The position numbers were made by a program, and so were the translations under genes. Under the pieces are notes generated by a model, which was not told the DNA's origin, did not search any database, and saw nothing but the letters and a program-made list of their open reading frames with translations. From an uncultured delta proteobacterium (GTDB taxonomy: Bacteria > Desulfobacterota > Binatia > Binatales > Binataceae), in NCBI GenBank assembly GCA_963789115.1, contig CAWBJH010000002.1, positions 174,414 to 238,413 on the forward strand: a DNA stretch of 64,000 nucleotides, in the 5' to 3' direction. This document shows positions 6,458 through 54,557 of the stretch, in pieces (position 1 is the stretch's first letter; every line of letters begins with the position of its first letter).

Positions 6458-6504
6458 CTGGGTAATTCGTTTAGAGAAGCGGCGGATTTCCGAGAGGGGA
6501 AAAA

Positions 6505-11001: not shown

Positions 11002-11081
11002 AAGGAGCGACCACAGCAACGTGCCCGTGGCACCGAGGGAGGCCGTCCGGCCTATACGGGAGTTGCAATTGGAGAATCGAA

Positions 11082-12866: not shown

Positions 12867-13005
12867 CCTCACTAACTCGGGCACCGTTACCTCATCCGGT
12901 AGCGTCCAGACTTTTTCGCACTTTCGATCTAAAATGATCGACCTTTGCCTCTGCTGGCGCTGTGGGCCACTTCAGCCGGAAGACAATTGCCGGATTTTTG
13001 GAGGG

Positions 13006-14666: not shown

Positions 14667-14781
14667 CGTCCCATTTATCGGGACGCGCCCGGCAACCTGA
14701 CGGGGCCGGCGAGTCGCGGCGGGTCGTCTTTGCAAGCCGAAGGTTCCATGCCACCATCTTAACTGATCTCGACGAACTGTT

Positions 14782-37044: not shown

Positions 37045-37142
37045 TTGACGGAGGAGCCGAAGCCGGACGTCGTCGAGGGCCGTTCACGAAGGGAATTATC
37101 GGGCACTTGACTACCGCTATCATTTGCGCTAATATTTCAACC

Positions 37143-38060
37143 ATGAAGAACGACGAACCGAAATTCGTTCCCCAGATGACGCTTTCCGAGTTCGAGGCGT
37201 TGTTCCCCAATGAGGGCGCGTGCTGGACCTACCTCCTGGAGCGCCGCTGGCCCAACGGCCCTTGCTGCCCACGCTGCGGCAATGACCACGTGTATGAGAG
37301 CAAGGCACGCCCGTGGCACTGGCAGTGCAAGAAGTGCGGAGCGGATAACCGCTCCCCCTACCGCTTCTCGCTCAAGACGGGAACCATCTTCGAGGAAACC
37401 AAGAAGCCGCTCCGCACGTGGTTCCAAGTCCTGCATCTGATGGTTACGAGCAAGAAGGGCATCAGTGCCCACCAGATCTACCGGCTCATCGGAAGCGCCA
37501 CCTACGAGACGGCTTGGTACATGTGCATGAGACTTCGCGCCGCGATGCACGATCCTGACTTTAAGAAACTGATGGGAATCGTCGAAATTGACGAGGCTTT
37601 CGTCGGCGGCAAAGAGAAGAACAAGCACTGGGACAAACGCGATCCGCACAACACGGCTGGCAAGGGCAAAGCCGTGGTCATTGGAGCCATCGCGCGCAAG
37701 GGTAACGTGGTCTGCAAAGTGATCGAAAAAGCCGACCGCGCCCGCATGATGGGCTTCGTCCGCAGAGTCGTGGACAAAGAGAAGGTCGAGCTTATCGCAA
37801 CCGACGAACACAAGGGCTACGACACCATCGGCGATTCCATGCGCCACGAGGTCATCAAGCACAGCGAAGGCGTCTATGTTCGCGGGGTCGTCCACACGAA
37901 CAATATCGAATCGTTCTGGGCGCTCCTGAAGCGCGGCGTGATCGGTACTTATCACCACGTGAGCGAAAAGTATCTGCCGCTGTATTTGGCGGAGTTTCAA
38001 TTCCGCTTTAACAACCGCAGAGAAGCCGATATTTTCGGCAAGGCGATAGCAGGATGCTGA
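37143..38060 (+). CDS. IS1595-family (ISXO2-like) transposase
   Basis: CPRC...CKKC ribbon, EIDEAFVGG, TDE, HTNNIESFW, YLAEFQFRFNNR. Confidence 0.93.
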   Translation: MKNDEPKFVPQMTLSEFEALFPNEGACWTYLLERRWPNGPCCPRCGNDHVYESKARPWHWQCKKCGADNRSPYRFSLKTGTIFEETKKPLRTWFQVLHLMVTSKKGISAHQIYRLIGSATYETAWYMCMRLRAAMHDPDFKKLMGIVEIDEAFVGGKEKNKHWDKRDPHNTAGKGKAVVIGAIARKGNVVCKVIEKADRARMMGFVRRVVDKEKVELIATDEHKGYDTIGDSMRHEVIKHSEGVYVRGVVHTNNIESFWALLKRGVIGTYHHVSEKYLPLYLAEFQFRFNNRREADIFGKAIAGC

Positions 38061-38142: not shown

Positions 38143-39018
38143 TTATTGCGGCCAATTGTTCCTCGTCGGGCCAAAGAAAATGTTGGGCAATATGTCGAGT
38201 AGGTTACTGCCGCCTTGCGTCAGGCAGACGGTTCGCCTTTCTGATTCGCCGGGTATTTGCACATCAATTGTTTTGGGCCGATCAACAGTTGCTAGTACGT
38301 CACCCTCGTTAACAATCCAGAGTGTAAAAGTGTCACCCGCATTGAGGGCACCAATACGAACGGGTAGCGGATGAACGTCGCTGCCGAAATGGGCCATGAA
38401 CGTTAGTGTTGCATTGATGATGGGCGTTTCACCTATATTCTTTACTTCACAACGCCATGAGAACTCAGGTAGCCAAATTGGCGCTGATGGTTCTCTTTTT
38501 GGTTGAATATCTGCCGGTGGCCAAATCAGTGGTTTATCCCCGTTGGTATTATCTACGCTGAATAGCACCGCGACACCGAACACAACTGGTGGATTGGGTG
38601 CTTTCGCGCGTAGAGGAAGTATATAGAACATCGAATGAGGCGGCACCGTAATAGGCAGTCCAGCCATTCGGTAATCGCTCACCAACACCACTGATTTAGC
38701 TGAGACAGTCGGAGTCGGATAATTGTTGATCTGGTTCCCTTGGATATATGTCCCGCCCGGTCCGCCAGGAGCACCAGCTCCGCCTCCGCCCCCGCCAGCT
38801 TGACTGCCGCCTGTTCCACCGCCTTGGGTCGCGATAGGTGACGGCGACGGCCCGGATTCGGGCCAAGCAAAGTACAGCCAACTGAAACCCGCGAGGGCGA
38901 CAGCCATGCACAAAACCCCCATAATGCGACGATTTGGCGTCAGCATGAGATTGATCGCTTCGCCAAAAAGAGCCGCGAGAGCGAGAGCAAACACCCAAAA
39001 TTTCGGTTCGTGAAGCAC
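38143..39018 (-). CDS. Passenger membrane-anchored protein of unknown function
   Basis: Two N-terminal TM helices, Gly/Pro linker, beta-rich C-terminal domain; lower GC than the host. Confidence 0.6.
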   Translation of the reverse strand: MLHEPKFWVFALALAALFGEAINLMLTPNRRIMGVLCMAVALAGFSWLYFAWPESGPSPSPIATQGGGTGGSQAGGGGGGAGAPGGPGGTYIQGNQINNYPTPTVSAKSVVLVSDYRMAGLPITVPPHSMFYILPLRAKAPNPPVVFGVAVLFSVDNTNGDKPLIWPPADIQPKREPSAPIWLPEFSWRCEVKNIGETPIINATLTFMAHFGSDVHPLPVRIGALNAGDTFTLWIVNEGDVLATVDRPKTIDVQIPGESERRTVCLTQGGSNLLDILPNIFFGPTRNNWPQ

Positions 39019-39091
39019 GCTAAGGATTCACGAGGGATTGGCGCATGGTACCGCGCTTGACGACTACCCGCCAACTGCGGAAACTTGGGGC

Positions 39092-39259
39092 ATGGGTTCT
39101 CGATACGCGCAGCCAATCCTGTTTTTCTTCTGTCGTCGATGCGGCCACTACGAAGAGAAGAAGACGAGCCCGCATTACCGCGCGCAGAAGCAACGGGCTT
39201 GTCGCCGTCGCAAGGCGAAGGAAGCCGCCCAAGGCGAGCAGGCCCAACAGCCCGCCTAA
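39092..39259 (+). CDS. Possible small basic Cys-containing protein
   Basis: FFCRRCGHYE motif and basic tail; lies inside the IS1595 element. Confidence 0.25.
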   Translation: MGSRYAQPILFFFCRRCGHYEEKKTSPHYRAQKQRACRRRKAKEAAQGEQAQQPA

Positions 39260-39359
39260 TCCAACAGGGAGGTAAGTCAGGGTCCGACTCATCGCCGGAA
39301 AGTGTAGCATTTTCGGGTAGGGTAGTCCACTGCCCGATAATTCCCTTCTCGAACGGCCC

Positions 39360-41015
39360 CTACGGTCGGAGACCGGGCACAAAATTGGACGGCATATGAG
39401 CCAATAGCGTCTGCCCATACACCAGTATCGAGAGGACTACAGTGATTCCAACCCAGTAGTGCAGGCTATCGAGCCTGAGCTCCCATCCGGCTTTTTCGGG
39501 AGCCCGGATCGTTGCCGTGAACGGGATGTCAGTGGGTGCGGTCTTTTCTCCTGCGAACACGGTCATCACCAGCTCGAGAAAGAAGAGCATCGCGCTGATG
39601 AACATTATCGTTCCGCCGACCCCGGTCATCGCTCCCGCGACGCGCCATCCGGGCAAGCTATAGGTTGCCAGCGCCAGGTCGGTGCGCCGCGGCATCCCCT
39701 CGAGCCCGCCCATCATCAGCCCGCGCGACATGATCAGCACGCCGCCGAACCAAATTACCGACTGCGCGACCGCAAGCTTCGGCGCCCAGAGTTTCCTGCG
39801 CTCCAGATAGGGCACCATCCAATACGCGATTCCCATGTAGGACAGCATGACCGCGCTGCCCACCGTCAGATGGAAATGGCCCGGAATGAAGGTGGTGTTG
39901 TGAAGCATAAGGTTCATGCCGAAGCTCGCCACCATCAGGCCCGTGATGCCGCCCACAAAGAACGTCAGCATCGCCAGCACCTGCGCGCATACCGAGGGAT
40001 CGCTCCATGGAATCTTGAAGAACCAGCCGATGAGTCCCTTCCCGCCGCGCCGGCGTCCGCCGATCTCGAGCGCGTACATCACCGCGAACGCCGTCATCAG
40101 GCTCGGGAAAAAAATCCCGAACGTCAGCACGGTCGAAGCGAACTTATAACCCTGCGTGATTCCCGGATCGACGTACTGGTGATGGAAGCCGACCGGGATT
40201 AGCACGATAAAAAGCACGAAGACCACCCGCGTGAGCTTGTCGGAGAACAGAGCACCGCCGACCTGCTTGGGAATCAGCGCGTACCAGGAAACATAAACCG
40301 GCAGCAGCCAGAAGTAGACGATCGGATGGCCGGTGAACCAGAACAGCGTCCTGCTCAGCATCGGGTCCGCTCCGGCGAGCAATCCCAGCGACCACGGCAG
40401 CAGCAGCACGACCACTTCAACCGCAAGCCCAACCGACGCAACATCCCACATCACGTAGGTGGCCGTCGAAATGAACGCGAGCAGCGGGATGCGCTCGCCC
40501 GCATGTTCCTTGCGCCATGCCGAGAGCGTGACAAGCTGATTCGCCGAGGTTGCCCAGGTGCTGGCAACCACCAGCGCCAACCCCAGATAGAACGTCCAGT
40601 GCGCTTCCAGCGGGGGATAAAACGTGTACAGCACGCTCGCCTGTCCCGTGAACATCGCGTACCCGGCGAGCAGCACGCCCACCAACAACAGCCACCACGC
40701 AGCCTGGAGCAGCGCAGTGCTCAGCGGCCGGCTGAGCCCTCGCGCCGTCATCAGGGAGATGAAGCCGTTGCCGAAGGCCGTGGTCAGCACCAGGGCGTTG
40801 ATTACGCCGTGTATGGTCAATCCCTGGTAATAGCTCTTGATGCCGGGGAGATAGGGCAAAATCTGTATGTGCGCGTGATCGAGCGCCTGCACGAGTCCAA
40901 AGAGCACGCCGACCGCGAGCAAGGCGAATCCGAAGTAGATATTCCAGCTAATCAGCCTGCGCTGCACGTCGGGCAGTTCAAATCCGGCGGGGTCGTAAAC
41001 AACCGGTGTGCTCAC
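39360..41015 (-). CDS. cbaA: B-family (ba3-type) heme-copper O2 reductase subunit I
   Basis: YYQGLTIHG, FWFTGHPIVYFW (cross-link Tyr), PVGFHHQ, PSLMTAF, GHFHLTVG, GMPRR. Confidence 0.93.
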   Translation of the reverse strand: MSTPVVYDPAGFELPDVQRRLISWNIYFGFALLAVGVLFGLVQALDHAHIQILPYLPGIKSYYQGLTIHGVINALVLTTAFGNGFISLMTARGLSRPLSTALLQAAWWLLLVGVLLAGYAMFTGQASVLYTFYPPLEAHWTFYLGLALVVASTWATSANQLVTLSAWRKEHAGERIPLLAFISTATYVMWDVASVGLAVEVVVLLLPWSLGLLAGADPMLSRTLFWFTGHPIVYFWLLPVYVSWYALIPKQVGGALFSDKLTRVVFVLFIVLIPVGFHHQYVDPGITQGYKFASTVLTFGIFFPSLMTAFAVMYALEIGGRRRGGKGLIGWFFKIPWSDPSVCAQVLAMLTFFVGGITGLMVASFGMNLMLHNTTFIPGHFHLTVGSAVMLSYMGIAYWMVPYLERRKLWAPKLAVAQSVIWFGGVLIMSRGLMMGGLEGMPRRTDLALATYSLPGWRVAGAMTGVGGTIMFISAMLFFLELVMTVFAGEKTAPTDIPFTATIRAPEKAGWELRLDSLHYWVGITVVLSILVYGQTLLAHMPSNFVPGLRP

Positions 41016-41494
41016 TTGACCACCACCTTGCCTGACATCGTATGGTGCAGCATGCCGCAGTACTCGTGACAGAGAATTAGATACTCACCGGGCCGGGTGA
41101 ACTTGTAAGTCGCGACCGAGATTTCGCCGGGGATTAGCATCATGTTGACGCGCGTGTTCGGGATGAAAAAGCCGTGGACCACGTCCGCCGAGGTCGCCCG
41201 AAAGGTGACCTCCGCCCCGACCGGCACGTCGATTTCATCGGGTGTGAACGCCCAGGTCCGTCCGATCACGACCGCCTCGTACCTGCCGGGCGCAATCTGC
41301 TTCAGCCCGGGGGCGTTGAATGGCGGCGTCTGGCGCAGCACCTTGAGCAACTTCTGATTCGACCTGCAGTAGACCCGCCCGCTTTCTGTCGGCAGGACGA
41401 CACCGAGCCCGAGCGTGCTGTATGCCAACGCGGCCAGAAAGACCACCAGCACGACAGCGGCGGCGACGAGGAAGCCCTTTTCGTAAGTCTCCAT
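41012..41494 (-). CDS. cbaB: ba3-type oxidase subunit II (CuA)
   Basis: Single TM, DVVHGF, CHEYCGMLHHTM. Confidence 0.92.
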   Translation of the reverse strand: METYEKGFLVAAAVVLVVFLAALAYSTLGLGVVLPTESGRVYCRSNQKLLKVLRQTPPFNAPGLKQIAPGRYEAVVIGRTWAFTPDEIDVPVGAEVTFRATSADVVHGFFIPNTRVNMMLIPGEISVATYKFTRPGEYLILCHEYCGMLHHTMSGKVVVK

Positions 41495-41497
41495 GCG

Positions 41498-41650
41498 TTA
41501 CCTGCTGATAAGCCCGAACAGCATCGCCACCCACATCACGACCAGTATGAGACCATAGGCCGACAGCACAAATATGGTTCCGGTCGGCGGCGGCACTCCA
41601 TCGCCGGGTACTTCCACTGGGGGCCCTTGTCCTTTCGATACTTTGCTCAT
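41498..41650 (-). CDS. cbaD: ba3-type oxidase subunit IIa-like peptide
   Basis: 50 aa, PTGTIFVL...MWVAMLFGLISR single TM, upstream of subunit II. Confidence 0.7.
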   Translation of the reverse strand: MSKVSKGQGPPVEVPGDGVPPPTGTIFVLSAYGLILVVMWVAMLFGLISR

Positions 41651-41952
41651 CGAAACCTCGCTTGGAACCGGCACCGATGATGAGAACCGAGTACCCTGAA
41701 TAGCACCCAGCCTCAGGACGTCAAGGCCTAAACTTAAATCCAAGCCCAAACGCGCTGCCCTCCCGGGCGAGCCTCTTTTCATTTTTCACACCGGTCGGGG
41801 CTTGCGTTCGCAGGGCAAAATAGTTTTAGTCTCTTCGGCAGACACCGCGGGCGATTGCCACCGGCGGGAATCTTGAGGACGAGCGGGTATCGCGCTGCCC
41901 GCCGGGGCGCGGGGACGATCCGGCATCGATGTCGGAGATGAAGGAGGTAAAG

Positions 41953-43494
41953 ATGCGTAGCCGGCGATTGCGAAATGCCGCCCTGATCGTTCTCGGCGTT
42001 CTCGGATTGATCGCTTGCGCGTTGCCACTGACCGCGCGCGCCGGAGACGACCCGCCCAACGACCCACCCAAGAGCAGCAAGGAGATCCGCGAAATCAGGC
42101 GCTCGATCGAGAAGCTCGAGGCGGACCGCGAGGCGGATCGGGTCCTGATCGATCAGCTCCGCCACCGGCTCGACCAGGTCGAAAGCGAGAACCATCAGCT
42201 CAAGGCGGCCAGCGAGCAGCTCCAGGGCCAGACCAGCGACCAGATCAAGCAGATCGAGACCAAGGTGGAGACCGGGCCCTCGCCGAGCGCGTTCTCGGAC
42301 GCGTTTGGCCGCTATCTCGGTTCTCGCACCTTCAGCGTGACCGGTGCGGCGGGTTTCGACTTCGTCTTCGACCAGCAGAGCGCGGCGCTCGACGGCTTCC
42401 CTCATGAGACCCAGAACTCCTTCTTTGCCGACTGGGAGCCGATGATTCTGTACCGCCCGGCTGACTGGATTCTATTCGAGGGCGTGTTGAGCGCCTCGGC
42501 CGGCTCAGGCGGGACTGGGACCGACTTATCAACCGCCGACTTCCAGCTTTTTCTCAACGACTACATGACGGTAGTGGGCGGTCTCTTCGACCAGCCCTTC
42601 GGCGATTGGTACGAGAACCAGAGCCCGATGTGGGTGAACCGCTTCGTGAGCGCTCCGCTGCCGTTCGCGGTCGAGCCGGTGGTTCCGCCGGGCGAAATCG
42701 GGGTCCAGTTGCGGGGCGGGCTCCAGTGGGGACAGCTCGGCCAGGATTTCGATTACACCACGTGGATCGGGAACGGTCCGAGCTTCAGCGACCCGTCACT
42801 GGGCGCCGCGATGAGCGGGCCCAACTTCAGCTCGGCCTCCCAAACCCATGGCAGGTCTTACGGGGGACGCTTGCGCCTCTACCCGATTCCGGTGGACTCC
42901 AATCTCGGGCGGCTCGAGCTGGGCGCCTCGACCTACGATGGCAAGTGGCTCGATGGTGACTGGCTCACGTCGTGGGGCGTTGACTACAACTACCTGATGG
43001 GAAACTTCGAGACGCGCGGCGAGTGGCTGGAGTCTTATCGCGAGCTGCCGGGCGGCACGATGGACAATCGTCAGGGCTGGTACGTGCAGTTGGGCTACAC
43101 GCTGGCCGAGTTGAACCTGCCGTTCCTGTCCGACGACCTCAACGCGCGGATCCATCGTCTGGAGCCGTTGATCCGCTACTCGGGAGTGAACCAGCGCCAG
43201 GTTGACATCGGTGACATCGGCCCCCTTAATACATTTACGGCCGGGCTCGTCCCGGACTTCGGGCTGAGCGGTTCGCCGGCGCTGTTCGCGCCGCACTCGC
43301 GCGAGGTGGCGATCGGATTGGACTACTACATTGCACCCTCCATCGTGTGGCAGAACGAGCTGGACATCGAATTGCCCCGTGCGGGCGGCAGCTTCTTCAC
43401 TCCCGCCACAGGCTCGACCCCTGCCACCACGACCCTTGCCGGCTCCATTCCCAGCGACAAGGCGTTCCTGAGCCAGTTCACGGTGGGGTTCTGA
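41953..43494 (+). CDS. Outer-membrane beta-barrel (porin-like) with N-terminal coiled coil
   Basis: AAGGAGGT RBS, signal peptide ending ARA, coiled coil, amphipathic strands, C-terminal QFTVGF. Confidence 0.8.
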   Translation: MRSRRLRNAALIVLGVLGLIACALPLTARAGDDPPNDPPKSSKEIREIRRSIEKLEADREADRVLIDQLRHRLDQVESENHQLKAASEQLQGQTSDQIKQIETKVETGPSPSAFSDAFGRYLGSRTFSVTGAAGFDFVFDQQSAALDGFPHETQNSFFADWEPMILYRPADWILFEGVLSASAGSGGTGTDLSTADFQLFLNDYMTVVGGLFDQPFGDWYENQSPMWVNRFVSAPLPFAVEPVVPPGEIGVQLRGGLQWGQLGQDFDYTTWIGNGPSFSDPSLGAAMSGPNFSSASQTHGRSYGGRLRLYPIPVDSNLGRLELGASTYDGKWLDGDWLTSWGVDYNYLMGNFETRGEWLESYRELPGGTMDNRQGWYVQLGYTLAELNLPFLSDDLNARIHRLEPLIRYSGVNQRQVDIGDIGPLNTFTAGLVPDFGLSGSPALFAPHSREVAIGLDYYIAPSIVWQNELDIELPRAGGSFFTPATGSTPATTTLAGSIPSDKAFLSQFTVGF

Positions 43495-43799
43495 TGAGGC
43501 GCAACATGAAGACGTTACTAGCAGCATTGCTGTTGGCGGGCGTGACGGTGGGCGCGGTCTGCGCGCCGGTGCTGGCGCAGGAACAGCAGGAGCAGATGAG
43601 TGCGGCCCAGAAGAAGGAGTTGTTCCGGGAAGGCGCCAAGCTGTGGCCGCTCTACTGCAACACCTGCCACAAGGCACGGCCGGGCGCCGAAAAGGCCTCC
43701 TATGAATGGGACCAGGTCATCATGCACATGCGGACGCTCGGAAATCTGCCTGCGCAGGACTCGCGGGCGCTGGTCGAATACCTTAAGGCAGGCAAGTAG
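43494..43799 (+). CDS. Small periplasmic monoheme cytochrome c
   Basis: Signal peptide, CNTCH, WDQVIMHMR; TGATG coupling to the porin. Confidence 0.85.
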   Translation: MRRNMKTLLAALLLAGVTVGAVCAPVLAQEQQEQMSAAQKKELFREGAKLWPLYCNTCHKARPGAEKASYEWDQVIMHMRTLGNLPAQDSRALVEYLKAGK

Positions 43800-43854
43800 G
43801 CGCGCCAACCCTTTTTCCGCAACCTGATAAAGAACCACGGCAAAGGATGGTCCG

Positions 43855-44220
43855 GTGAGCAAAATCGGGTATCTGGTCGGTGCGATAGCCATCACAACGT
43901 CTCTGTCGGCGGTCGCGGCCCCCGCGTGGGCCGCGGACCTGGCCGCGGCGAAGCAGAATTACACGACCTTCTGCATCAAGTGCCACGGTCCCTTGGGCAA
44001 GGGCGACGGCCCGTCGGCGGCGGCTCTCAAGACCAAGCCGCGCGACTTTACCGATTGCAAACGCATGGCGAGTCTGCCGGACGCCACCCTGTTCAAGGTG
44101 ATCAAGGACGGCGGAGCCGCCAACAATCTCAGCGGCGACATGCCGTCCTGGAGCCAGGGCTTCGAGGACAACGAGATTCACGACTTGGTCGCGTTCGTCC
44201 GCGGCTTTTGCAAGAAGTAG
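43855..44220 (+). CDS. Periplasmic monoheme cytochrome c (His/Met)
   Basis: Signal peptide ending AWA, CIKCHG..GKGDGP, DMPSW. Confidence 0.88.
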   Translation: MSKIGYLVGAIAITTSLSAVAAPAWAADLAAAKQNYTTFCIKCHGPLGKGDGPSAAALKTKPRDFTDCKRMASLPDATLFKVIKDGGAANNLSGDMPSWSQGFEDNEIHDLVAFVRGFCKK

Positions 44221-44290
44221 GGCGGCTGGTGCCGCTCCAACCGGTTGCCCCGACTATCAGCGTGGACTCGGGGCAAGCGACACGCCGGCA

Positions 44291-44319
44291 TTGACGGCGC
44301 TGACTTTGCCCAAGATAGT
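44291..44319 (+). promoter_or_regulatory. Putative sigma70 promoter
   Basis: TTGACG-17 nt-GATAGT. Confidence 0.4.
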
Positions 44320-44424
44320 TGCAACGGCACTGGGCGGCCGGCGTGCTCTTGCTCGGGGCGGGTCTTATCGTCGCACTGCCGGCGAGAAGGGTTGTCGGAT
44401 TGGCGCCGATCTCGGGTTGAGATA

Positions 44425-46344
44425 GTGGAACAGGGCTACAAGGTGGAGGCCAAGCCGCGCGACCTCTGGTGGTTTCGCCAGAACGTGCCGTGCTTGGTTG
44501 CTTGCCCGGTCAAGACCGACGCGGGCCGTTACGTCCAGTTGATTGCCGAGGGACGCTTCGCCGAGGCTTACCGGGTGGCGCGCTCACCCAACCCGATCGC
44601 CTCGATCTGCGGGCGCACCTGCGGTGCTCCATGCGAGGACGCCTGCCGGCGCGGCAAGATCGACGCGCCGGTCACGATTCGCGCGCTCAAGCGCTTCGTC
44701 TGCGAGCTTTATGGTCCCGAGGCGCTCTCGGCGACCAGCCTCAGGGAAATTCTCCTGGGCCCGATGGGCGGCGCCAGCATCACTCCCGGCCACGCCGAAA
44801 GGATGCTGCGTGGCACGACGACCGCTGAGCGGCGCGTTGCCGTGGTCGGGGCCGGGCCGGCCGGGCTGTCGTGCGCGCACGACCTCGCGATGATGGGTTA
44901 CTCGGTCACGGTGTTCGAGGCGATGCCGCATCCGGGCGGCATGATGCGCTACGGCATCCCGCCCTATCGCCTGCCGCGAGAGGTCATCGACTACCAGGTC
45001 GCCGAGATCGAATCGCTCGGCGTCGAATTCGTCTACGGCACCCCGCTTGGACCGGAGTTCGGGCTTCGCGACTTGAAGCGCCGCGGCTTTGACGCGATCT
45101 TCCTTGCGATCGGCGCGGGCAGAGGCCGCGCCCTGCGAGTGGAGGGCTCGGAGAGCGAGGGCGTGCTCAAGGCGATCGATTATCTGATCGGAATCAACCG
45201 CGGACGGCGGATGGTTATGGGCAAACGCGCCGTCATCGTCGGCGGCGGCCTGGTCGCGATCGATGCCGCGCGGACCGCGGTGCGCGCGATGATCCCGGGG
45301 ATCTCGATGGCGCCCGAGGAGGAGCAGGCGCTGGCCGCCGGCACGATGCGGATCGCGATCGACGCGGCCCGCGAGGCGTTCCGGCTCGGCGCGCGGGAGG
45401 TGACGCTGGTGAGCCTCGAGTCCGACGCCGAGATGCCGGCGATGCAATCGGTGCAGGGGCGCGAGGAGATGGAGATCGCCCGCGAGGAAGGCATCCGCTT
45501 CATGCCCTCGTGGGGACCCAAGCGGATCGTTTCGCAAAACGGAACGGCCGTCGGGATCGAGCTGATGCGATGCACTCGCGTGTTCGACGAGTCGCGGCGT
45601 TTCAGTCCCCAATTCAACCAAAGCGAGACCCGGACCCTGGACGCCGATACGATAATCCTCGCGATCGGCCAGGCGGCGGACCTCTCGTTCATCTCCCCCG
45701 AAGACCACCTCGACACCACCCCCGCCGGAACCATCAAGGTCAACCCGGTTACGCTGGCGACCAGCGCGCCCGGCGTGTTCGCCGGCGGCGACGGCGCCTT
45801 CCCGCCCTCGCTGCTGATCACGGTCGCGGAGCAGGGCAAAGTCGCGGCGCGCTCGATCGACGCCTACCTGGGAGGTAAGCCGCTCGAAAAAACCCTGATG
45901 CAGGTGACGGTCGAGGAGCTGCCGACCGACCGCTATCGGATGGCGCCCGGCTACGAGCTGACCGGGCGCGATATCCCGCTGACCCCGATCGAGCGCCGCA
46001 GCGGCATCACCGAAGTCGAGTCCGGCTATTCCAGCATCCAGGCCCGCGAGCAGGCCGAGCGATGCCTGTACTGCCATATCCATCCGATCTACGACGGAAC
46101 CAAATGCGTGCTCTGCAACCGTTGCGTCGATGTCTGTCCCGAGCACTGCCTGCTCTTCGTCCCGACCGAGCGCCTGGACGACCCTGCGTGGCTCAGCGAA
46201 GTGATGCCCGGCGAAGGCCCGCTGACTGCGTTCCTCTATGACGAAGCGAAGTGCATCAGGTGCGGCCTCTGCGCGATCCGATGCCCGACCGCGGCGATCA
46301 CGATGGAGCAGTTCCAGTTCGAGGAGACCCATTCCAATGCGTAG
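44425..46344 (+). CDS. GltD/SudA/NfnB-family FAD-NAD(P) oxidoreductase with C-terminal 2x[4Fe-4S] domain
   Basis: PCLVACP, CGRTCGAPCEDAC, GAGPAG, GGGLVAID, RCLYC, CVLCNRCVDVCP, CIRCGLCAIRCP. Confidence 0.9.
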   Translation: MEQGYKVEAKPRDLWWFRQNVPCLVACPVKTDAGRYVQLIAEGRFAEAYRVARSPNPIASICGRTCGAPCEDACRRGKIDAPVTIRALKRFVCELYGPEALSATSLREILLGPMGGASITPGHAERMLRGTTTAERRVAVVGAGPAGLSCAHDLAMMGYSVTVFEAMPHPGGMMRYGIPPYRLPREVIDYQVAEIESLGVEFVYGTPLGPEFGLRDLKRRGFDAIFLAIGAGRGRALRVEGSESEGVLKAIDYLIGINRGRRMVMGKRAVIVGGGLVAIDAARTAVRAMIPGISMAPEEEQALAAGTMRIAIDAAREAFRLGAREVTLVSLESDAEMPAMQSVQGREEMEIAREEGIRFMPSWGPKRIVSQNGTAVGIELMRCTRVFDESRRFSPQFNQSETRTLDADTIILAIGQAADLSFISPEDHLDTTPAGTIKVNPVTLATSAPGVFAGGDGAFPPSLLITVAEQGKVAARSIDAYLGGKPLEKTLMQVTVEELPTDRYRMAPGYELTGRDIPLTPIERRSGITEVESGYSSIQAREQAERCLYCHIHPIYDGTKCVLCNRCVDVCPEHCLLFVPTERLDDPAWLSEVMPGEGPLTAFLYDEAKCIRCGLCAIRCPTAAITMEQFQFEETHSNA

Positions 46345-47804
46345 CCTGGCAGGGTGCGGAAAAAAGGCTGGTGAGCCCGGAGCGCGCCGCTATGGTCAAA
46401 GCACCCTGCTAGTCCGCGCATGCGCCGCGATCCTGTTGATGTCGCTCTTCGCGGCCTCGGCCGCCTTCGCCTACGAAACCATCGAGGTCACCAACGGCGC
46501 AACGATCACCGGCGTCGTGAAGGTCACCGGCAAGACGACTGCGCCGGCGCCGTTCACGGTCTACAAGAACCGCGAGGTGTGCGGCGCCCGCGTCGAAAAC
46601 GAAAGCCTGGTGGTGGGACCCGGCAACGGCCTGCGCTACGCCGTGGTCACCATTGTCGATATCACCAGGGGCAAGGCCGTCGAGACGGAGGCGGTCAACA
46701 CCCTCGACAACGTGCGATGTCGATTTGTTCCGCACGTTCAGGCGGTCAGCGTCGGCCAGTTTATCGAGCTCAACAATACCGACCCGATCCTGCACAATGC
46801 CGACGCCGTCCTCGACAAGAGACAGACCCTGTTCAACGTCGCGCTCTGGCCGGGGCGCGAGCTGCGCCGGCCGATCGCCTACCCGGGCGTGATTCGCATC
46901 AACTGCGACGTTCCATCCCTGGATGAATGCCTACGCGGTCGCAACCGTACACCCCTACCACGCAGTCACCGACCTTGATGGCGCGTACGAGATCGACGAC
47001 GTGCCGCCGGGAACCTACCAGATCCGCGTATGGCACGAGACCCTCGGCACGCAGCAGAAGCAGGTGCGGGTCGGGCCGGGTGGAAAAACAGAAGTCGATT
47101 TCACGCTGAGCGCCGAGACCAAAGCCACCGCGCAAGCCTCAGCCCGGCCGCCCCGGCCGCAGCCCGCGCCGCCGCAGCCGCCTGCGACGGTGAGCCAGAG
47201 TCAACCTGCCACCGGTCAAGCTCAAGTCCCCCCTGCGCTCTCGGCCAAAGGGAGGGGCGAAATCACCGGTACCGTGACGATCCGGGGCAAGGTCGAGCCC
47301 GCAGTCAAGGATGCGGTGCTGTGGGTCGCGGGAGTCCCGCGCCAACTGATCCCGAAGGAAAGGCTGAAACCCGGCGTCGCCGCGATGGAGCAGAAAGATA
47401 TCGCGTTCGTGCCCCATGTATTGCCGGTGCTGGTCGGCACGACCGTCAATTTCCCCAACGACGACCCGGTCTTCCACAACGTCTATTCCGCCTCACCGGT
47501 GCATAAATTCGACCTGGGACTCTATCCCCAGGGCAGATCGCGCAGTACCCAATTCGACCAGCCCGGCATCGCGCACATCGGGTGCAACGTGCATGCACAG
47601 ATGAGCGGCTACGTGGTGGTCCTGGCCGAGCCCTTCTTTGCCGTGCCCAACGAACGCGGCGTCTATCAGCTTGGCGGGCTTCCGCTCGGCACCTACACCA
47701 TCAAGCTCTGGGACCCCGACTTCGCGCCGGTGAGCCAGCCCTTTACGCTCACGCGCGATGGTGAGGTCCTGAACCTCGACTTCGACCTGGGCGAGGAGAA
47801 GTGA
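46337..47804 (+). CDS. Secreted protein with two cupredoxin-motif/carboxypeptidase-regulatory-like units; 1-nt frameshift near 46912
   Basis: ILHNA...NCDV/HPWMNAY across the shift, and FHNV...GCNVHAQMSGY; Pro/Gln linker between units. Confidence 0.72.
46350..46408. mobile_element. MITE inserted in frame in the signal-peptide region
   Basis: CTGG|CAGGGTGCGGAAAAAA...AAAGCACCCTG|CTAG; 59+4=63 nt. Confidence 0.7.
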
Positions 47805-47875
47805 CAAGCGAGCATCGCGAGCTTGCCATTCCTTCGGCAACCTCAGGACGGGCCGCTTGAGCAGGGCAGGAGAAG

Positions 47876-48334
47876 ATGAACACGACGCGGCGATGGGTCC
47901 TGAGTCTGATGGGCAGGGGCGCGGTGGGGCTGGCCTTCTTGACACAGATCGGAGCGGCGGCGCGCGCTCTTTTGCCCAACGTGCTCTACGAGCCGCTCAA
48001 GCGCTTCAAGCTCAAGCGGCCCGACCAGTACGCGGAGGGCTTCACCTTCGATCCCGACCGCCGGCTGTTCGTGGTCCGCAACCAGGACAACTTTCACGTC
48101 ATCTCGGCGGTCTGCACGCATCTCGGATGCACGGTGCAGTGGCGCGCAACCGAGTTCGATTGTCCGTGCCACGGCAGCCGCTTCCGCCCCGACGGCAGCG
48201 TGATCGGTGGGCCCGCTCCGCGTCCGCTGGCGTGGTACGACGTCTCGCTCTCGCCCGACGGTTTCATCGAGGTTGACACCGAGACCCCGGTGGTGCGCGG
48301 CTTCAACTTCACCCTTCCCAAGGCCAAGGCATGA
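47876..48334 (+). CDS. Rieske Fe-S subunit
   Basis: TRR Tat-like leader, CTHLGC and [15 protein letters not shown]. Confidence 0.93.
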
Positions 48335-49638
48335 CCATGCGCGAACGACTGTCGGCGCTCTGGCGCAAGCTTGCCTGGAGCTGGGACCCGCGCGGCGAGC
48401 GCGAAGCCGGCGAGGCGATCGTCCGTAACCTCTGGCTGCACTGGTTGCCGGCCAAGGTCGCGCGGGTCAGCGCGAGCTGGAGTTACTCGGCGTGGCTGGG
48501 AGCGATCGCGGCGATCCTGTTCGTGATCCTCAACGTAACCGGCCTGCTCCTGATGTTCTTCTACGTGCCGTCGACCGAGAAAGCCTACGGCAGCATGAAG
48601 GATCTCGACTACGCGGTGACGCTCGGCTGGCTCTTGCGCAATCAGCATCGATGGGCCGCGCACGGGATGGTCGCGGTGGTGTTCCTCCACATGGCGCGGG
48701 TATTTTTCACCGGCGCTTACCGGGGACCGCGGGCGTTGAACTGGCTGGTCGGGCTGGCGCTTCTGCTCGCGACGCTGCTCTGCTCATTCACCGGCTACCT
48801 GCTCCCCTGGGACCAGCTCGCCTTGTGGGCCGTAACCGTCGGCACGAATATCGCGCGGGAGGCGCCGCTAGCCGGCGAGTTCATCCGCTACGTGCTGCTC
48901 GGCGGCACCCAGATCGGGCAGAACGCGTTGCTGCGCTTCTACGTGCTGCACGTGTTCTTCATCCCGTTGGCGATCTGGGTGTTGTTCGCCTACCACATGT
49001 GGCGGGTGCGCAAGGACGGCGGCCTGGCGGCGATCGAGCCGCTGCGGCTTAACCGCCAAATGCAGCCCAAGGAAATGCCGGCCACCAAAAGCTACTCGCT
49101 GTGGGGACTCGCGCGCGGGACCTCGGCGGCGGTGCGCAGCTCGACCGAGCTGGAGGAGAGCGACGAGGTCTTCGCCTCGCCGAACGTGACGCGGCGGCTG
49201 GTGCTGGTCTTCCTGGTGGTACTCAACGTCACGATTCTGATCAGCGTGTTCTTCAATGCGCCGCTCGAGGAAGCGGCCAATCCCGCGCTGACGCCGAATC
49301 CGGCCAAGGCGCCTTGGTATTTCCTGTGGCTCCAGGAGCTGGTGGCGTCAACCACGATTCCGATCGGCTCGATCCGGATCAGCGGCGGTCTTATCGGCGG
49401 GATTATCGTTCCGGGGGTCCTGCTCGCCGCCGCGGCTCTGTGGCCGTGGCTGGACCGCTCGTCACCCGCCAGTGAGGGGGTCTGGTTCGCGCGCGAGCGG
49501 CGCTGGCAGAATGCGACCTTCGCGGCGGTGTTGGTGCTGATCGTCGCGCTGATCATGATTGGAATTTTTGTTCGCGGACCCTACTGGCGCCTCTACTGGC
49601 CCGGCATGCCCTGGCCCCCGACGCCGCGGACGCTCTGA
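48331..49638 (+). CDS. Cytochrome b (b6 + subunit IV fused type)
   Basis: [50 protein letters not shown]. Confidence 0.93.
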
Positions 49639-49639
49639 A

Positions 49640-50842
49640 ATGGAACCACGACAAGACGAACTCGAACGCCAGGACTTTGCCTGGATGGTGCTGGCGTCGC
49701 TGGTCTTTTTCATACTTGTGGCGATCGCCGCCTGGCGCGCCTTCGACACCGAATACGGGCCGATTCAGGCCCGCTTCCGGCAGATATTGGAACAGCACAA
49801 CCAGCTCGCCGCGGCGCGACGTTTCCGCCCCGGGATCCGCCAGATCTGGAATCCCGAGATCGGCGTGGTGGACCGTTGCATCACCTGTCATCTCGGCTAC
49901 GAATGGGGCGGCCAACTCCCGGCCGATTTGCCGCAACCCTTCGCGCCGCATCCGCCGCTCCCATACCTCGACAAGCATCCGTTCCCCAGCTTCGGCTGTA
50001 CGGTCTGCCACGGCGGACAGGGATGGGCGACGACCGCTTCGATGGCGCATGTCGGCGGTGAGCATTGGCAATCGCCGATGCTGTCGAGCAAGCTCGCCCG
50101 CCGCTTGGGCCTGACCGCCGCCCAGCTTATGCAGATGCGATGCAACATCTGCCATCGCCACGACCTCTCCACCCCCGGCATGGAGGAAATCAACCAGGCC
50201 AAGGACCTCGTCAAGCGCAAGAAGTGCCTGGTTTGCCACACGATCGAGGACAAGGGAGGGCTGGTCGCTCCCGAGCTGACTTATTTCGGTGACAAGAACC
50301 CGGAACTGTTCGACTTCAAAAACGTCACCGGCGCGCACACCGAGTTCAACTGGAGCTACCAGCACCTGATGGACCCGGACAAGATCACGCCCAATACCAC
50401 GATGCCGACCTTCGGGTTCGAGCCCACGCAGGCTCGGGCGTTGACCCTGCTGCTGCTGAGCTGGCAACGCAACAACTTCCCGCCCCAGTACATCCCGACC
50501 CCGGTCGAGATCGCGCAGCCGCCGTACAAGCTGGCTTCCGCGGTGGGAGAGCCGCCGGTGGTGGCGGGCGCCGAGTCCGGACGCAACGTGTTCCGCACTC
50601 GTGGATGCGCCTACTGTCACACCGTCGGCCAAGGCCGCCTGCTCGGCCCCGACCTCAAGGGAGTCGGCTTGCGGCGCGACGAGCGATGGCTGCGGCAGTG
50701 GCTGGCCGCTCCTGCCTCCGTGATCCGCGCCTATCCGGAATTCGCGCACTGGCCGGATGAGTACGACGGAATCGTGATGCCGAATCAGAACCTCTCGCCC
50801 GAGGAGATCAACGCTCTGGTTGCGTACCTGAGCAAGCTCTGA
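49640..50842 (+). CDS. Membrane-anchored pentaheme cytochrome c
   Basis: N-terminal TM; CITCH, CTVCH, CNICH, CLVCH, CAYCH. Confidence 0.9.
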   Translation: MEPRQDELERQDFAWMVLASLVFFILVAIAAWRAFDTEYGPIQARFRQILEQHNQLAAARRFRPGIRQIWNPEIGVVDRCITCHLGYEWGGQLPADLPQPFAPHPPLPYLDKHPFPSFGCTVCHGGQGWATTASMAHVGGEHWQSPMLSSKLARRLGLTAAQLMQMRCNICHRHDLSTPGMEEINQAKDLVKRKKCLVCHTIEDKGGLVAPELTYFGDKNPELFDFKNVTGAHTEFNWSYQHLMDPDKITPNTTMPTFGFEPTQARALTLLLLSWQRNNFPPQYIPTPVEIAQPPYKLASAVGEPPVVAGAESGRNVFRTRGCAYCHTVGQGRLLGPDLKGVGLRRDERWLRQWLAAPASVIRAYPEFAHWPDEYDGIVMPNQNLSPEEINALVAYLSKL

Positions 50843-50881
50843 GGGCACGGCCGGTAACCGAACAAGTCCGGAGCAGGAATC

Positions 50882-51883
50882 GTGGCTCACTTGACCTTCA
50901 ACATTGCTGTCATGCAATTCCTGGCAGACCACAGGACTTTTTTTCTCACGAAATTCTTCCTGCTCGCCAGCTTCGTTGGTCAGGTCGAGGGCTACATCCT
51001 TATCGTGACCCTAATCTACGTGATGGTCGACAAGACGCTGGCTGTCCGGCTTTCCGTACTGGTACTGCTGACGATGTGTCTCAATCACGTCCTGAAGATA
51101 ATTATCAAGAATCCTCGGCCCTTCATCCACGAAGGCACCTATCTCCAGAAGTGGGCGGTATCGACGGAGAACGCAAAAGCACTTGCGACCGAGTATTCAA
51201 TGCCTTCCGGCCACGCGATGGCTGGTTCGACTTTCTACTCTTATCTCGCCGCGTCTTTCGAAAATCCATTCGTAAGAGTAATCGCCGTCATAGCGATTCT
51301 TCTCACCGGATTTTCGCGCCCCTACCTCGGTGTCCACTATCCCGGGGACATTCTCATCGGTTGGATGATTGGATTGCCGGTCGGCCTGGTAGCGATAAAA
51401 CGCGCTGATAAAATCAGCGACGGATGGAATAAGCTGTCATATCGGCACCAGGTGGGAATCGTTGCTGCCTCAAGCCTGATTCTCTGGCTCGCCACGATCG
51501 CAATCAACGGTTGGCGCATCGATCGTCAGCCCCGCGCATTTTTGGGCTATGCAGGATTCTTGACGGGCATCGTCTTCGCCCGCCCCATTGAGCTGAGCAC
51601 TCTGGACTTCGATCCCAGAAGTTCTAAACCGATGGCAAAAATGCTGCGATTCGCCATATCCGTTGCCATGGTGCTGGTAACGCTGCTCCTTCTCGACAAG
51701 GTCTTTAGAGTAATAGCCAACGACTTCTCGGTGCTTGGATACATGTTGCAGTACATTCGCTACGCCATTGCCGGCGTGGTAAGCATATTCGTCGCGCCTC
51801 TGCTTTTTACAAAAGTCAGATTGGCTGAAACCAACCCTGTGGCAGCAGCCGAGGGCACGCCCGGTTTGCACTTGGCCCTCTAA
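50882..51883 (+). CDS. PAP2-family membrane phosphatase
   Basis: K-x6-RP, SMPSGH, SRPYLGVHYPGD. Confidence 0.9.
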   Translation: MAHLTFNIAVMQFLADHRTFFLTKFFLLASFVGQVEGYILIVTLIYVMVDKTLAVRLSVLVLLTMCLNHVLKIIIKNPRPFIHEGTYLQKWAVSTENAKALATEYSMPSGHAMAGSTFYSYLAASFENPFVRVIAVIAILLTGFSRPYLGVHYPGDILIGWMIGLPVGLVAIKRADKISDGWNKLSYRHQVGIVAASSLILWLATIAINGWRIDRQPRAFLGYAGFLTGIVFARPIELSTLDFDPRSSKPMAKMLRFAISVAMVLVTLLLLDKVFRVIANDFSVLGYMLQYIRYAIAGVVSIFVAPLLFTKVRLAETNPVAAAEGTPGLHLAL

Positions 51884-51911
51884 GCCCTTCGCCCAGGCCG
51901 GCCCACGTTCC

Positions 51912-52240
51912 TAGGCGTTAACCTAACAGTTGACGTGAGACGGGGACGAGGCGGGTGTCCTCCCTCTCCCACATTTTTAGTGGGAGAGGGCAAGCGGCGT
52001 GGCGATTGCTCCTTCTCGCAATCGCCGTGACGCGCGGGTGAGGGTGCTGCTATCCTGCTCGAAGTGCGGCGCTTTTTTCGAATTGCTCCTGCAGAGGCGA
52101 CTGCGCTTCCCCTCTCCCGCTAAAGATGCGGGCGAGGGCAGGATATCCCGGCGCCCCGGCCTCAGTACTCGCCGACCGTTTGCGCCCGTCCAATTCACCT
52201 TCCCCCTCTGCCCAGCGCCTAGGTCTTAGGTTAACGCCTA
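51912..52240. mobile_element. MITE with TA ends, second family
   Basis: Perfect 15-bp IR TAGGCGTTAACCTAA / TTAGGTTAACGCCTA; internal CCCTCTCCC...GGGAGAGGG hairpins. Confidence 0.7.
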
Positions 52241-52927: not shown

Positions 52928-54121
52928 GTGGACTTTGAGTTCTTTAATAGGGACTATGCCACCCTAATAGAGGAGCTTGAGCGGTTCCTTGGTCCGACCG
53001 AAATCGACCGCAAGCTCAAGAAGATCGATCATGCACTAAGACACCGGAACCCGTTGGTCGCAGCGTACTACGGGCCGACGCCGAAGGCGGCGCTCTGGTT
53101 GGGTCTTAGAAAGGCTCGTCAAGCTGTCAAGCAACACAGTCGCATCTCCGTTGGTGACGAGCACGTGTATCGCGCTCTCGACCTCGCAGCCACGCTGCGT
53201 GCCCTTTGGCCAAGTACGCCCGACTGGAGGCGTAAGGATCTCAAATCGCAGCTTCTTAGTGAAAGTGCTCTGGAACCGGTTCTTCTGGAGGTCAAAACTG
53301 CCTTGCACCTGGTACTTTCCGGTCACAAGATCACCTGGATCGAGCCGGCGCGAACACCAGGAGTGAGGACACCAGATCTGGTCGGTGAAAAAGACTCCTT
53401 TGCCTTCGAAGTCGAGTGCAAGGCACAAAGCGTAAACGAAGGGCGGAAAGTAGTCCGAGAGGCGATGCACGACTTCTGCTATCGACTCGCTACTGCGATT
53501 CTGGGCGACAAAGTCGCCGGGCTTTGGCGCGACGTTTCTGTTTGCGTGCCAGACCGGTTTCCAGCGGGCCACACTTGGCAACAGGACCTCGTGGAACGGA
53601 TCGCTGCGATCAAACACGGCGGTAATGTAGAGCTTGCGGACGGAACATCAGCCAAGGTCGTTCTTCGGCTCGCCACGAATCATCTGCCCGCGCTCGCGCC
53701 TGGCCAGTTTGGTCACATGTGCATTCTGACGGCACGAGCAGACGGCAGCGAACCCACGCTGACCATTCGGGTTGGGAGCACTAAACCGGACACGATGTTG
53801 GCAGCGATTGAAGAAGACCTTAACGACGCGTTGGGCCAATTTTCTGGCGCTCGGCCCGGAAAAATCGTTTGTTACGTTCCGGAGATCCCGTCCTTTCGAG
53901 GGATGAATACACTCGACAGCGGTATTGCGCAGATGACGTATCATTTTTTCCTTAGGCACCAGCGAGCCCGAATTGTCTTCGAGGTTGACTACGTTTCGGA
54001 CGTTGATTTGCAAGGGGGCGCAGGTTTGGCGAGGGGACTGCATTTCCTGCGGTTTCGGAACCCGAATCACCCTTTTCAATCGCCTTCCCCGAGGGCCCAG
54101 CAGCCGTCGTCGCCCAACTAA
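52928..54121 (+). CDS. Hypothetical protein with a PD-(D/E)xK nuclease-like motif
   Basis: E...RTPDLVGEKDSFAFEVECK; lower GC than the host. Confidence 0.6.
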   Translation: MDFEFFNRDYATLIEELERFLGPTEIDRKLKKIDHALRHRNPLVAAYYGPTPKAALWLGLRKARQAVKQHSRISVGDEHVYRALDLAATLRALWPSTPDWRRKDLKSQLLSESALEPVLLEVKTALHLVLSGHKITWIEPARTPGVRTPDLVGEKDSFAFEVECKAQSVNEGRKVVREAMHDFCYRLATAILGDKVAGLWRDVSVCVPDRFPAGHTWQQDLVERIAAIKHGGNVELADGTSAKVVLRLATNHLPALAPGQFGHMCILTARADGSEPTLTIRVGSTKPDTMLAAIEEDLNDALGQFSGARPGKIVCYVPEIPSFRGMNTLDSGIAQMTYHFFLRHQRARIVFEVDYVSDVDLQGGAGLARGLHFLRFRNPNHPFQSPSPRAQQPSSPN

Positions 54122-54123
54122 CG

Positions 54124-54552: not shown

Positions 54553-54557
54553 CGATC

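Follow-up and report, generated by a model that had tools for sequence, protein, structure and literature searches.

The window, i.e. the whole 64,000-nt stretch of contig CAWBJH010000002.1 that was analysed here, comes from a 97% complete Binataceae genome of 4.4 Mb in two contigs. Between positions 39360 and 50842 it carries two divergent gene clusters (Table 1): a ba3-type oxidase operon on the minus strand, and on the plus strand the genes of an outer-membrane porin, two secreted monohaem cytochromes c (c1 and c2), an NAD(P)-binding Fe-S flavoprotein, a double blue-copper (cupredoxin) protein, a Rieske protein, a cytochrome b and a pentahaem cytochrome c. An earlier note on this DNA had listed these components, and each of them was located by the open reading frame (ORF) listing and family scans. 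Tentatively, and with somewhat less than an even chance of being right, we read the locus as a modular electron-transfer system that would reach the outer membrane. The tightest unit of the cluster is the porin together with c1.

Table 1. Genes and features at positions 39360 to 50842 of the window. AF2, AlphaFold2 model; pLDDT, predicted local distance difference test; locus and contig labels are explained in the text.
Feature	Position	Strand	Basis
cbaA, ba3-type (B-family) haem-copper oxidase subunit I	39360..41015	-	PF00115 E 8.9e-80; Thermus ba3 1ehk_A E 2.4e-127, residues 23-549
cbaB, ba3 oxidase subunit II (CuA domain)	41012..41494	-	PF00116; Thermus ba3 1ehk_B E 1.2e-32
Candidate subunit IIa, 50-aa ORF, single hydrophobic helix	41498..41650	-	Position, size, tblastn-conserved ORF upstream of cbaB in L054-L058
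Divergent intergenic region, ba3 operon / porin operon	41651..41952	.	Sequence; X1 contig spans 41003-42436
Outer-membrane porin: signal peptide, ~80-residue coiled coil, modelled ~16-strand OprO/OprP-like barrel	41953..43494	+	AF2 model, Foldseek, VIA, Porin_O_P in 18/33 relatives
Cytochrome c1, secreted monohaem cytochrome c, ~73 aa mature, CNTCH, conserved Met79, predicted porin plug	43494..43799	+	Synteny, alignment of c1 sequences, complex prediction
Cytochrome c2, secreted class-I monohaem cytochrome c (CIKCH), likely periplasmic shuttle	43855..44220	+	PF13442 E 1.1e-10, PF00034
GltD/NfnB-like NAD(P)-binding Fe-S flavoprotein, C-terminal 2x[4Fe-4S] ferredoxin domain	ORF 44245..46344	+	PF07992, PF14691, PF12838; NF009410 E 6.7e-127; NfnA/NfnB and GltD structures
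Double blue-copper protein: signal peptide, 2 x (cupredoxin + CarboxypepD_reg)	46337..47804	+	PF13620, PF00127; AF2 pLDDT 95.7
Rieske [2Fe-2S] protein, twin-arginine N-terminus, CTHLGC / CPCHGS	47876..48334	+	PF00355; best NCBIfam matches b6f-type PetC; motifs from translation
Cytochrome b6-like protein fused to subunit-IV-like C-terminal part	48331..49638	+	PF00033, PF13631, PF00032; cytochrome b6 2zt9_A E 8.6e-40
Membrane-anchored pentahaem cytochrome c, four haems + extra C-terminal class-I domain	49559..50842	+	5 CXXCH; PF00034, PF13442

The start of the porin gene was set by an AAGGAGG ribosome-binding site. Since neighbouring genes on the plus strand overlap or sit within tens of bases of each other (the ATG of the cupredoxin gene overlaps the stop codon of the flavoprotein gene), the stretch 41953-50842 is likely to form a single operon. 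The relatives of the flavoprotein align only from residue ~55-66 onward, and its probable start is GTG 44425 rather than the first codon of the ORF. A scan of 38900-52000 for promoter and terminator patterns returned nothing above chance, and a palindrome search of the divergent ba3/porin region gave nothing useful.

The loci used for comparison were collected via flavoprotein, barrel or ba3 matches and deduplicated into 41 distinct barrel loci, the proportions among which are biased by this selection. In all 41 loci c1 lies directly downstream of the porin gene, on the same strand and with a gap of 0-182 nt; three of these loci belong to other families of the class and share just 32-35% barrel identity. 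The c2 gene follows c1 in 36 loci. The order flavoprotein-Rieske-cytochrome b-multihaem cytochrome c follows the porin cassette in 25 loci, i.e. the plus-strand genes, which had been taken for one unit, do form a conserved run from the porin to the multihaem cytochrome. The genes flanking the operon are not conserved between loci. In three genomes (G001, G046 and G012) the porin-c1 pair is found apart from the c2-flavoprotein-Rieske/b genes. Another arrangement is seen in a genome from another family of the class (L069, positions 8217-12384), in which porin-c1 comes after a Rieske gene and a cytochrome b gene fused to a dihaem cytochrome c, with no flavoprotein gene.

Genome-wide tallies were made over 151 sampled Binataceae genomes. 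The barrel is present in 103 of these, usually as a single copy, and a flavoprotein ortholog in 53; the latter occurs in 51 of the 103 barrel-positive and 2 of the 48 barrel-negative genomes, and both of these exceptions are incomplete (83% and 69%). Four unpublished genomes (G016, G087, G102 and G157) are included, which can add no more than 4 to the 103 and 1 to the 53, and no claim about a particular locus is drawn from them. The barrel family itself is large (577 matches), and all named matches among the 120 listed belong to Binataceae or Candidatus Binatus. In a sample of the class, the barrel family was found in 11 of 14 members of Binataceae and 3 of 106 other genomes, and in a sample of the phylum in none of the 199 genomes outside Binataceae that were searched.

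The barrel protein of the window has no Pfam match (Porin_O_P, PF07396, gave none at E <= 0.1), and no NCBIfam model matched it at E <= 0.001. Porin_O_P is matched by 18 of 33 aligned relatives (best E 9.5e-6), and is found on 14-35% of the members of the ESM Atlas barrel clusters. The AF2 model (pLDDT 67) comprises a signal peptide, an N-terminal coiled coil of ~80 residues and 16-18 strand segments, the barrel portion making up ~390 residues of the 513-aa porin. In a Foldseek search with the barrel model OmpM1 was matched at E 4e-12, and OprP (2o4v) and OprO (4rjw) were also among the 16-strand porins listed; VIA-align gave Omp-Pst1 a Z of 21.2 and OprP a Z of 19.6 (root-mean-square deviation 6.8, 306 residues aligned). 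Judged from the model, the barrel fold is of the 16-strand trimeric porin type and resembles OprO/OprP. A grouping with solute porins had been named in advance as a result that would speak against an electron-transfer role. The barrel does group with solute and anion porins, yet this outcome does not discriminate, because the barrel of the Fe(II) oxidase Cyc2 has been described as OprO/OprP-like too (PMC8406198).

Mature c1 consists of ~73 residues, and in the alignment of c1 sequences CXXCH, Trp72 and Met79 are invariant; Met79 probably provides His/Met ligation of the haem. This type of ligation usually means a high potential, which suits accepting electrons over donating them to low-potential acceptors. 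The complex of barrel residues 118-513, c1 residues 29-101 and haem was predicted with scores of 0.90, 0.89 and 0.90, as compared to 0.01 for the best of three controls. Of 80 solved complexes 58 attained this mark, as did 2 of 110 mismatched pairs; these counts apply here only roughly, as custom alignments were used and the haem ligand was included. At least 93% of the contacts agree between runs, and the pLDDT of the partner is at least 87. The predicted contacts of the barrel (126-130, 166-176, 198-208, 254-269, 308-322, 346-353 and 459-463) correspond to the points where successive strands end and begin on the N-terminal side, i.e. the periplasmic rim of the AF2 model. An inward loop of the barrel (221-228) also takes part in the interface and touches His59 of the c1 haem motif, while the c1 side includes the CXXCH motif and Met77-79. 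Moreover, c1 is highly conserved at the residues predicted to contact the barrel. In other words, c1 is predicted, by modelling only, to plug the barrel at its periplasmic mouth. We know of no solved complex of a monohaem cytochrome with a porin, so a memorised prediction is unlikely. Fused long forms of c1 were sought among longer proteins and none was found, which is weak evidence.

The same data have to be weighed against a more conventional explanation, in which the locus is an ordinary respiratory neighbourhood: the barrel would be a non-redox general or anion porin, c1 and c2 soluble carriers of the Rieske/b complex, the docking an artefact of the model, and the proximity of ba3 a result of the clustering of respiratory genes. 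The fold is indeed that of general diffusion porins, the wide occurrence of the barrel in mostly single copy is as for a housekeeping porin, the model of the porin alone is moderately confident, the flanking genes vary from locus to locus, and IS1595 and IS200-like transposase genes lie ~1.3-2.8 kb past the far end of the ba3 operon. On the other hand, a housekeeping porin is not expected to be absent from 48 of the 151 genomes. Neither does this explanation account well for a porin-c1 adjacency without exception, which is kept down to 32% barrel identity and even where other respiratory genes are lacking, nor for the wide gap between the complex score and the controls, at a mark that few mismatched pairs reach, nor for the conservation of c1 at the predicted contacts. 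We consider it unlikely.

The closest known counterparts of the predicted porin-c1 complex are Cyc2, Cyc2PV-1 and Cyt572, the Fe(II) oxidases of Acidithiobacillus, Mariprofundus and Leptospirillum, in which a 16-strand OprO/OprP-like barrel carries a single c-type haem as a plug at its periplasmic opening, an arrangement that requires dissolved Fe2+ to go into the pore (PMC8406198, PMC13741234). The window system differs in that it consists of two genes and not one polypeptide, the two being separate in all 41 loci. Moreover, the Cyc2 motif AXPXFAR[Q/K][T/Y], located 5 residues upstream of CXXCH (PMC8406198), is absent from c1, whose consensus upstream of the haem motif is RRLFRxGAKLWPVY-CNTCH in 28 sequences, and of the PXL motif that Cyc2 has 4 residues downstream of CXXCH (PMC8406198) c1 keeps only the Pro: the sequence reads CNTCH-NAR-P-G-S/A, with the Pro nearly invariant and the Leu position taken by Ser, Ala or Gly. 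Further differences are the conserved Met of c1 as a likely second axial ligand and the long N-terminal coiled coil of the window porin. The suggestion of a split Cyc2 made in the earlier note is therefore supported by the type of barrel, the constant adjacency and the predicted docking, but not by the motifs of the cytochrome, and because c1 lacks the Cyc2 motif and has only the Pro of PXL, Fe(II) oxidase activity is not inferable by homology. A separately encoded cytochrome inserted in an outer-membrane barrel is also a property of MtrAB, MtoAB and PioAB; these have a 26-strand barrel and a membrane-spanning decahaem wire (PMC8406198), in contrast to the 16-18 strand segments and the single CXXCH found here.

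The second part of the operon contains a Rieske protein, a b6-like cytochrome b, a subunit-IV-like part, a multihaem cytochrome c and a GltD-like flavoprotein, i.e. the gene set known from anammox bacteria. The flavoprotein has a GltD/NfnB core with N-terminal Cys clusters (PF14691) and a C-terminal ferredoxin domain with two clusters; it would presumably attach to the Rieske/b complex. The translation of the cytochrome b has the b6-type spacing of His residues, H-x13-H in helix B and H-x14-H in helix D, and no Cys was seen at the position where, as we take it, b6 binds haem ci. Its best NCBIfam models are ExtP (246 bits vs a cut-off of 290) and ExtQ (75 vs 150), both below the cut-off. The multihaem cytochromes c with at least 35% identity (n=24) have 4 haems in 21 cases and 5 in 3, the fifth haem being an added C-terminal class-I domain, and three more distant homologues carry 7-10 CXXCH haems. 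The 5-haem form is seen in the window, in L013 and L024 and in the distant L021, as compared to 4 haems in 21 other loci.

This architecture was compared by description with that of Kuenenia stuttgartiensis (Kuste4569-4574 and Kustd1480-1485), which likewise has the Rieske protein, the b6-like cytochrome b, the subunit-IV-like part and the multihaem c subunit, together with a putative NAD(P) oxidoreductase that carries several Fe-S clusters and flavin adenine dinucleotide (FAD); the flavoprotein of these complexes has four Fe-S clusters, FAD and NAD(P), and a quinol-driven bifurcating reduction of NAD(P)+ was proposed, not shown, for them (PMC12954380). The NAD(P) flavoprotein pointed out beside the bc genes is thus present, but it is not undescribed. 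The differences are that cytochrome b and subunit IV are fused in the window and that its c subunit has five haems (four in most relatives) as against six or eight (PMC12954380). Moreover, the window lacks an HAO-like octahaem partner, its host is an aerobic soil bacterium, and the porin-cytochrome cassette lies upstream. A literature search for other lineages with flavoprotein-Rieske/b operons gave nothing relevant.

It could also be argued that the core of the locus is the flavoprotein-Rieske/b complex alone, functioning as proposed for anammox bacteria, and that the porin cassette is an independent neighbour. Electrons from quinol would then bifurcate, one path leading through the c-haems to ba3 or NirK and the other by way of the b-haems and the Fe-S clusters to FAD and NAD(P)+. 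Outside the family, a Melioribacter metagenome-assembled genome (MAG) and others (L021, L019 and L030-L033) have the four-gene core (flavoprotein, Rieske, cytochrome b and multihaem c) but no porin with it, this core has no adjacent porin in L024, L025 and L015 either, and the mechanism is in print for the Kuenenia complexes (PMC12954380). This explanation is distinctly unlikely in our judgement: 51 of the 53 flavoprotein-positive Binataceae genomes also have the barrel, the 25 loci mentioned above run straight from the porin cassette into the flavoprotein gene, and the bifurcation is unproven in anammox bacteria too.

The oxidase is assigned to the B-family (ba3) of haem-copper oxidases by the sequences of subunits I and II: subunit I matches aa3-type PDB entries at 1e-13 or weaker, far below its match to 1ehk_A. 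Both subunits are clear homologues of those of Thermus thermophilus ba3 (CbaABD), and a small one-helix ORF is found at the position of subunit IIa. This 50-aa ORF has no detectable sequence similarity to the Thermus IIa and no PDB or NCBIfam match; the tblastn matches upstream of cbaB in L054-L058 are 43-53% identical, and position, size and conservation suggest that it is subunit IIa. Unlike in Thermus, where cytochrome c552 is the donor, c2 or the cupredoxin may donate electrons here. Oxidases of the ba3 type are suited to low O2, and in Acidithiobacillus the gene context of Cyc2 includes a cytochrome oxidase and a bc complex.

A ba3 operon was found within 10 kb of the porin operon in 6 loci from 4 genera and in two arrangements, divergent (the window, L054, L055 and L056, and L057 with a 5.7-kb gap) or convergent and downstream of the operon (L058). 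The neighbourhood noticed in the window thus recurs in 5 further genomes; an initial view that it is unique to the window, based on first synteny sets with no ba3 within 10 kb, was overturned by these loci. The association is also seen genome-wide. Subunit I of ba3 (at least 61% identity) is present in 44 of the 151 genomes, G111 having been dropped for a match of 35% identity, and it occurs in 28 of the 53 flavoprotein-positive and 16 of the 98 flavoprotein-negative genomes (odds ratio 5.7, related genomes not being independent). Two genomes have two full porin-to-multihaem operons each (L055 and L060 in G166, L056 and L059 in G160), only one of which lies beside ba3; in G160 the barrels are 40% and 42% identical to that of the window and the flavoproteins 68-70%.

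The terminal enzyme is interchangeable, ba3 in the window being replaced by other enzymes elsewhere. In a Binataceae MAG (L017, positions 6634-9574) an extra cytochrome c, a NirK (match to 3x1f, E 1.7e-44) and two single-module cupredoxin genes are inserted between c1 and c2. In L050 (G092:C1, positions 4877-15342) an aa3-type oxidase operon surrounds a diverged porin-c1 paralog, with a barrel 38% identical, and this operon also contains genes for haem O synthase, ribulose-phosphate epimerase, a cupredoxin-CarboxypepD_reg protein and a COX2-cytochrome c fusion.

One extra base at 46911 breaks the cupredoxin ORF of the window in two, between the Cys and the His of the first copper site. This base is missing from the contigs of sequencing run X1 (depth 15.5 of 15.5), which may be the source sample, and from a contig of X3, a run of another study (4.39 of 4.39, a low depth). 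The X1 contigs are otherwise identical to 39000-51000, and one extends across the divergent ba3/porin junction. Dropping the base restores C-D-V-H-P-W-M and a single ORF of 488 aa. Because the X1 and X3 contigs lack the base, the frameshift is an assembly error and the gene is intact; a pseudogene or a programmed frameshift is ruled out by the same contigs.

Each of the two cupredoxin domains of the protein is followed by a CarboxypepD_reg domain. PF00127 is matched by 24 of 33 relatives, the window copy remaining below the cut-off (19.2 bits vs 21.2). The type-1 copper ligands are strongly conserved in the 33 sequences: H86, C122 and M128 show no variation, and at least 90% have H125. The AF2 model (pLDDT 95.7) matches amicyanin, plastocyanin and pseudoazurin with template modelling (TM) scores of 0.7-0.8 on the target. 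Taken together, His, Cys, His and Met ligands and the modelled fold identify the modules as type-1 copper domains. The module family comprises 11,578 representative clusters at E <= 0.001, and among the barrel loci cupredoxin genes are found in 3 of 41 (the window, L017 and L050). The double cupredoxin protein is thus there as first described, but since it is present in so few loci it is accessory to the cluster. As for c2, a weak match to the NCBIfam model of Leptospirillum cytochrome 579 (28.8 bits vs a cut-off of 280) was noted, and a relationship to that cytochrome was set aside, the match probably reflecting generic similarity of haem domains.

In the modular system that we tentatively propose, a trimeric-type OprO/OprP-like porin with a separate monohaem c1 docked in its periplasmic mouth would form the outer-membrane port, i.e. 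a two-gene Cyc2-like redox port. A small dissolved reductant, for which Fe(II) is the leading candidate, would enter the pore and be oxidised at the haem of c1. Soluble c2 and, in the window genome, the double blue-copper protein would act as periplasmic shuttles. From these the electrons could pass downhill to the high-affinity ba3 oxidase as the exit to O2; a second branch, consisting of the b6-type Rieske/cytochrome b, the pentahaem cytochrome c and the cytoplasmic NAD(P) Fe-S flavoprotein, would link the periplasmic carriers to the quinone pool and to NAD(P). Both the substrate and the direction of electron flow are inferred. By analogy, the Cyc2-like geometry and the probable His/Met haem lead us to favour electrons flowing inward from a reductant small enough for the pore, such as Fe(II). 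A more specific version of this proposal appears doubtful to us: the Binataceae pair would be a hitherto unrecognised two-gene monohaem porin-cytochrome, a convergent or very distant counterpart of Cyc2 acting as an outer-membrane oxidase of Fe(II) or other metals, which in about half of the carrier genomes is wired to a Rieske/b complex with its own flavoprotein, through which electrons reach NAD(P); this would be an uphill route without reverse complex I, with ba3, aa3 or NirK on the downhill side.

The flow could also be outward. In this case the Rieske/b complex would oxidise quinol, c2 or the cupredoxin would feed ba3, NirK or aa3, and porin-c1 would be a further exit that reduces a pore-sized oxidant such as a chelated metal or an oxyanion (selenite, tellurite or nitrite), resembling what was proposed for the extHIJKLMNOPQS cluster of Geobacter. 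The Ext system of Geobacter sulfurreducens joins in one cluster a porin weakly similar to phosphate porins (ExtI), c-type cytochromes, the Rieske protein ExtO, the b6-like cytochrome b ExtP and the subunit-IV-like ExtQ; it differs from the window in having cytochromes of 4 to 12 haems, a rhodanese-like protein and a selenoprotein, and in having neither a flavoprotein nor an oxidase (PMC5877670). The best NCBIfam matches of the window cytochrome b being ExtP and ExtQ fits an outward flow, even if the scores are below the cut-offs, and so does the kind of barrel: those of the OprP type conduct anions, and the best fold matches include OprP 2o4v and the anion-selective porin 1e54. The presence of NirK inside the operon of L017 points the same way, and a genome in which RuBisCO was not found would suit a heterotroph that disposes of electrons. 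On the other side, the barrel matches no NCBIfam model, the Ext conduits are multihaem whereas the port of the window has a single haem, and the probable His/Met ligation by Met79 of c1, of the kind that usually brings a high potential, would be less suited to donating electrons to low-potential acceptors. An outward flow is, in our estimate, improbable.

Several observations weigh against the proposed outer-membrane system. RuBisCO was not found in the 97% complete genome; a demand for uphill NAD(P)H by the Calvin-Benson-Bassham (CBB) cycle is therefore not evident, and lithotrophy, which the earlier note had considered, is not upheld in its CBB-autotrophic form. In 15 of the 41 loci the porin-c1(-c2) cassette is on its own, and the ~10 kb on either side hold no Rieske/b genes (the five immediately downstream genes that were scanned encode a methyltransferase, MntP, an alcohol dehydrogenase and two proteins without a Pfam match), and 52 of the 103 barrel-positive genomes have no flavoprotein ortholog. 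Since it is often found without these genes, the porin cassette is not dependent on the Rieske/b complex. The ba3 oxidase is present in 16 genomes without the flavoprotein, and of the 28 genomes with both, just 6 have them close together. The genome of the window has three further genes for subunit I of haem-copper oxidases and three for cytochrome b, i.e. four of each, because of which the cluster may be one of several ordinary branches. To these are added the absence of the Cyc2 motifs, the moderate confidence of the barrel model, the selection bias of the locus set and the relatedness of the genomes, which are not independent, so that the co-occurrence statistics overstate the link. The failure to find RuBisCO, the four oxidase and four cytochrome b genes and the frequent occurrence of the cassette without the complex keep the outward flow and the ordinary respiratory neighbourhood alive as rivals of the modular system.

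The novelty of the locus lies in the split, Cyc2-like monohaem porin-cytochrome and its link to ba3. A literature search for a split or unfused Cyc2, or for Binatota with iron oxidation, found no description, and in the main text of the Binatota genome paper alternative complex III is the only such complex named, 'Rieske' and 'ba3' having 0 occurrences. At present, genes for Fe(II) oxidation are mostly detected with models of Cyc2, Mto or Pio. The Cyc2 filter of FeGenie drops matches that have no haem motif or are shorter than 365 residues (PMC8406198), because of which a split form would be invisible to it. Should porin-c1 prove to be a redox port, a soil lineage that is large and widespread (103 of the 151 sampled genomes) would have an unrecognised means of exchanging electrons with its surroundings; Binataceae are abundant uncultured bacteria of soil and peat. 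The operon also gives the NAD(P)-linked Rieske/b complexes of the anammox type an aerobic genomic context and defined periplasmic partners. With a porin of 513 aa and a mature cytochrome of 73 aa, the pair is small enough that its expression and structural study should be practicable.

A few features of the surroundings may be added. The two transposase genes past the 3' end of the ba3 operon are an IS200/Y1-type fragment (36517-37044) and an IS1595-family gene (37107-38060), and between them and the ba3 genes there is a Gly-rich ORF of 291 aa (38143-39018) without a family match. On the other side, a gene for a PAP2-family phosphatase (50882-51883) begins 39 nt after that of the pentahaem cytochrome; its third-position GC is 0.65 vs ~0.85, and it is not kept beside the operon in other loci. 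Further downstream (52928-55802), a 609-aa protein with a SIR2_2 domain has weak PADLOC matches to Aga_SIR2/SIR2 (best E 6.9e-11) and is adjoined by an ORF of 397 aa that belongs to no family; this region may be a defence locus.

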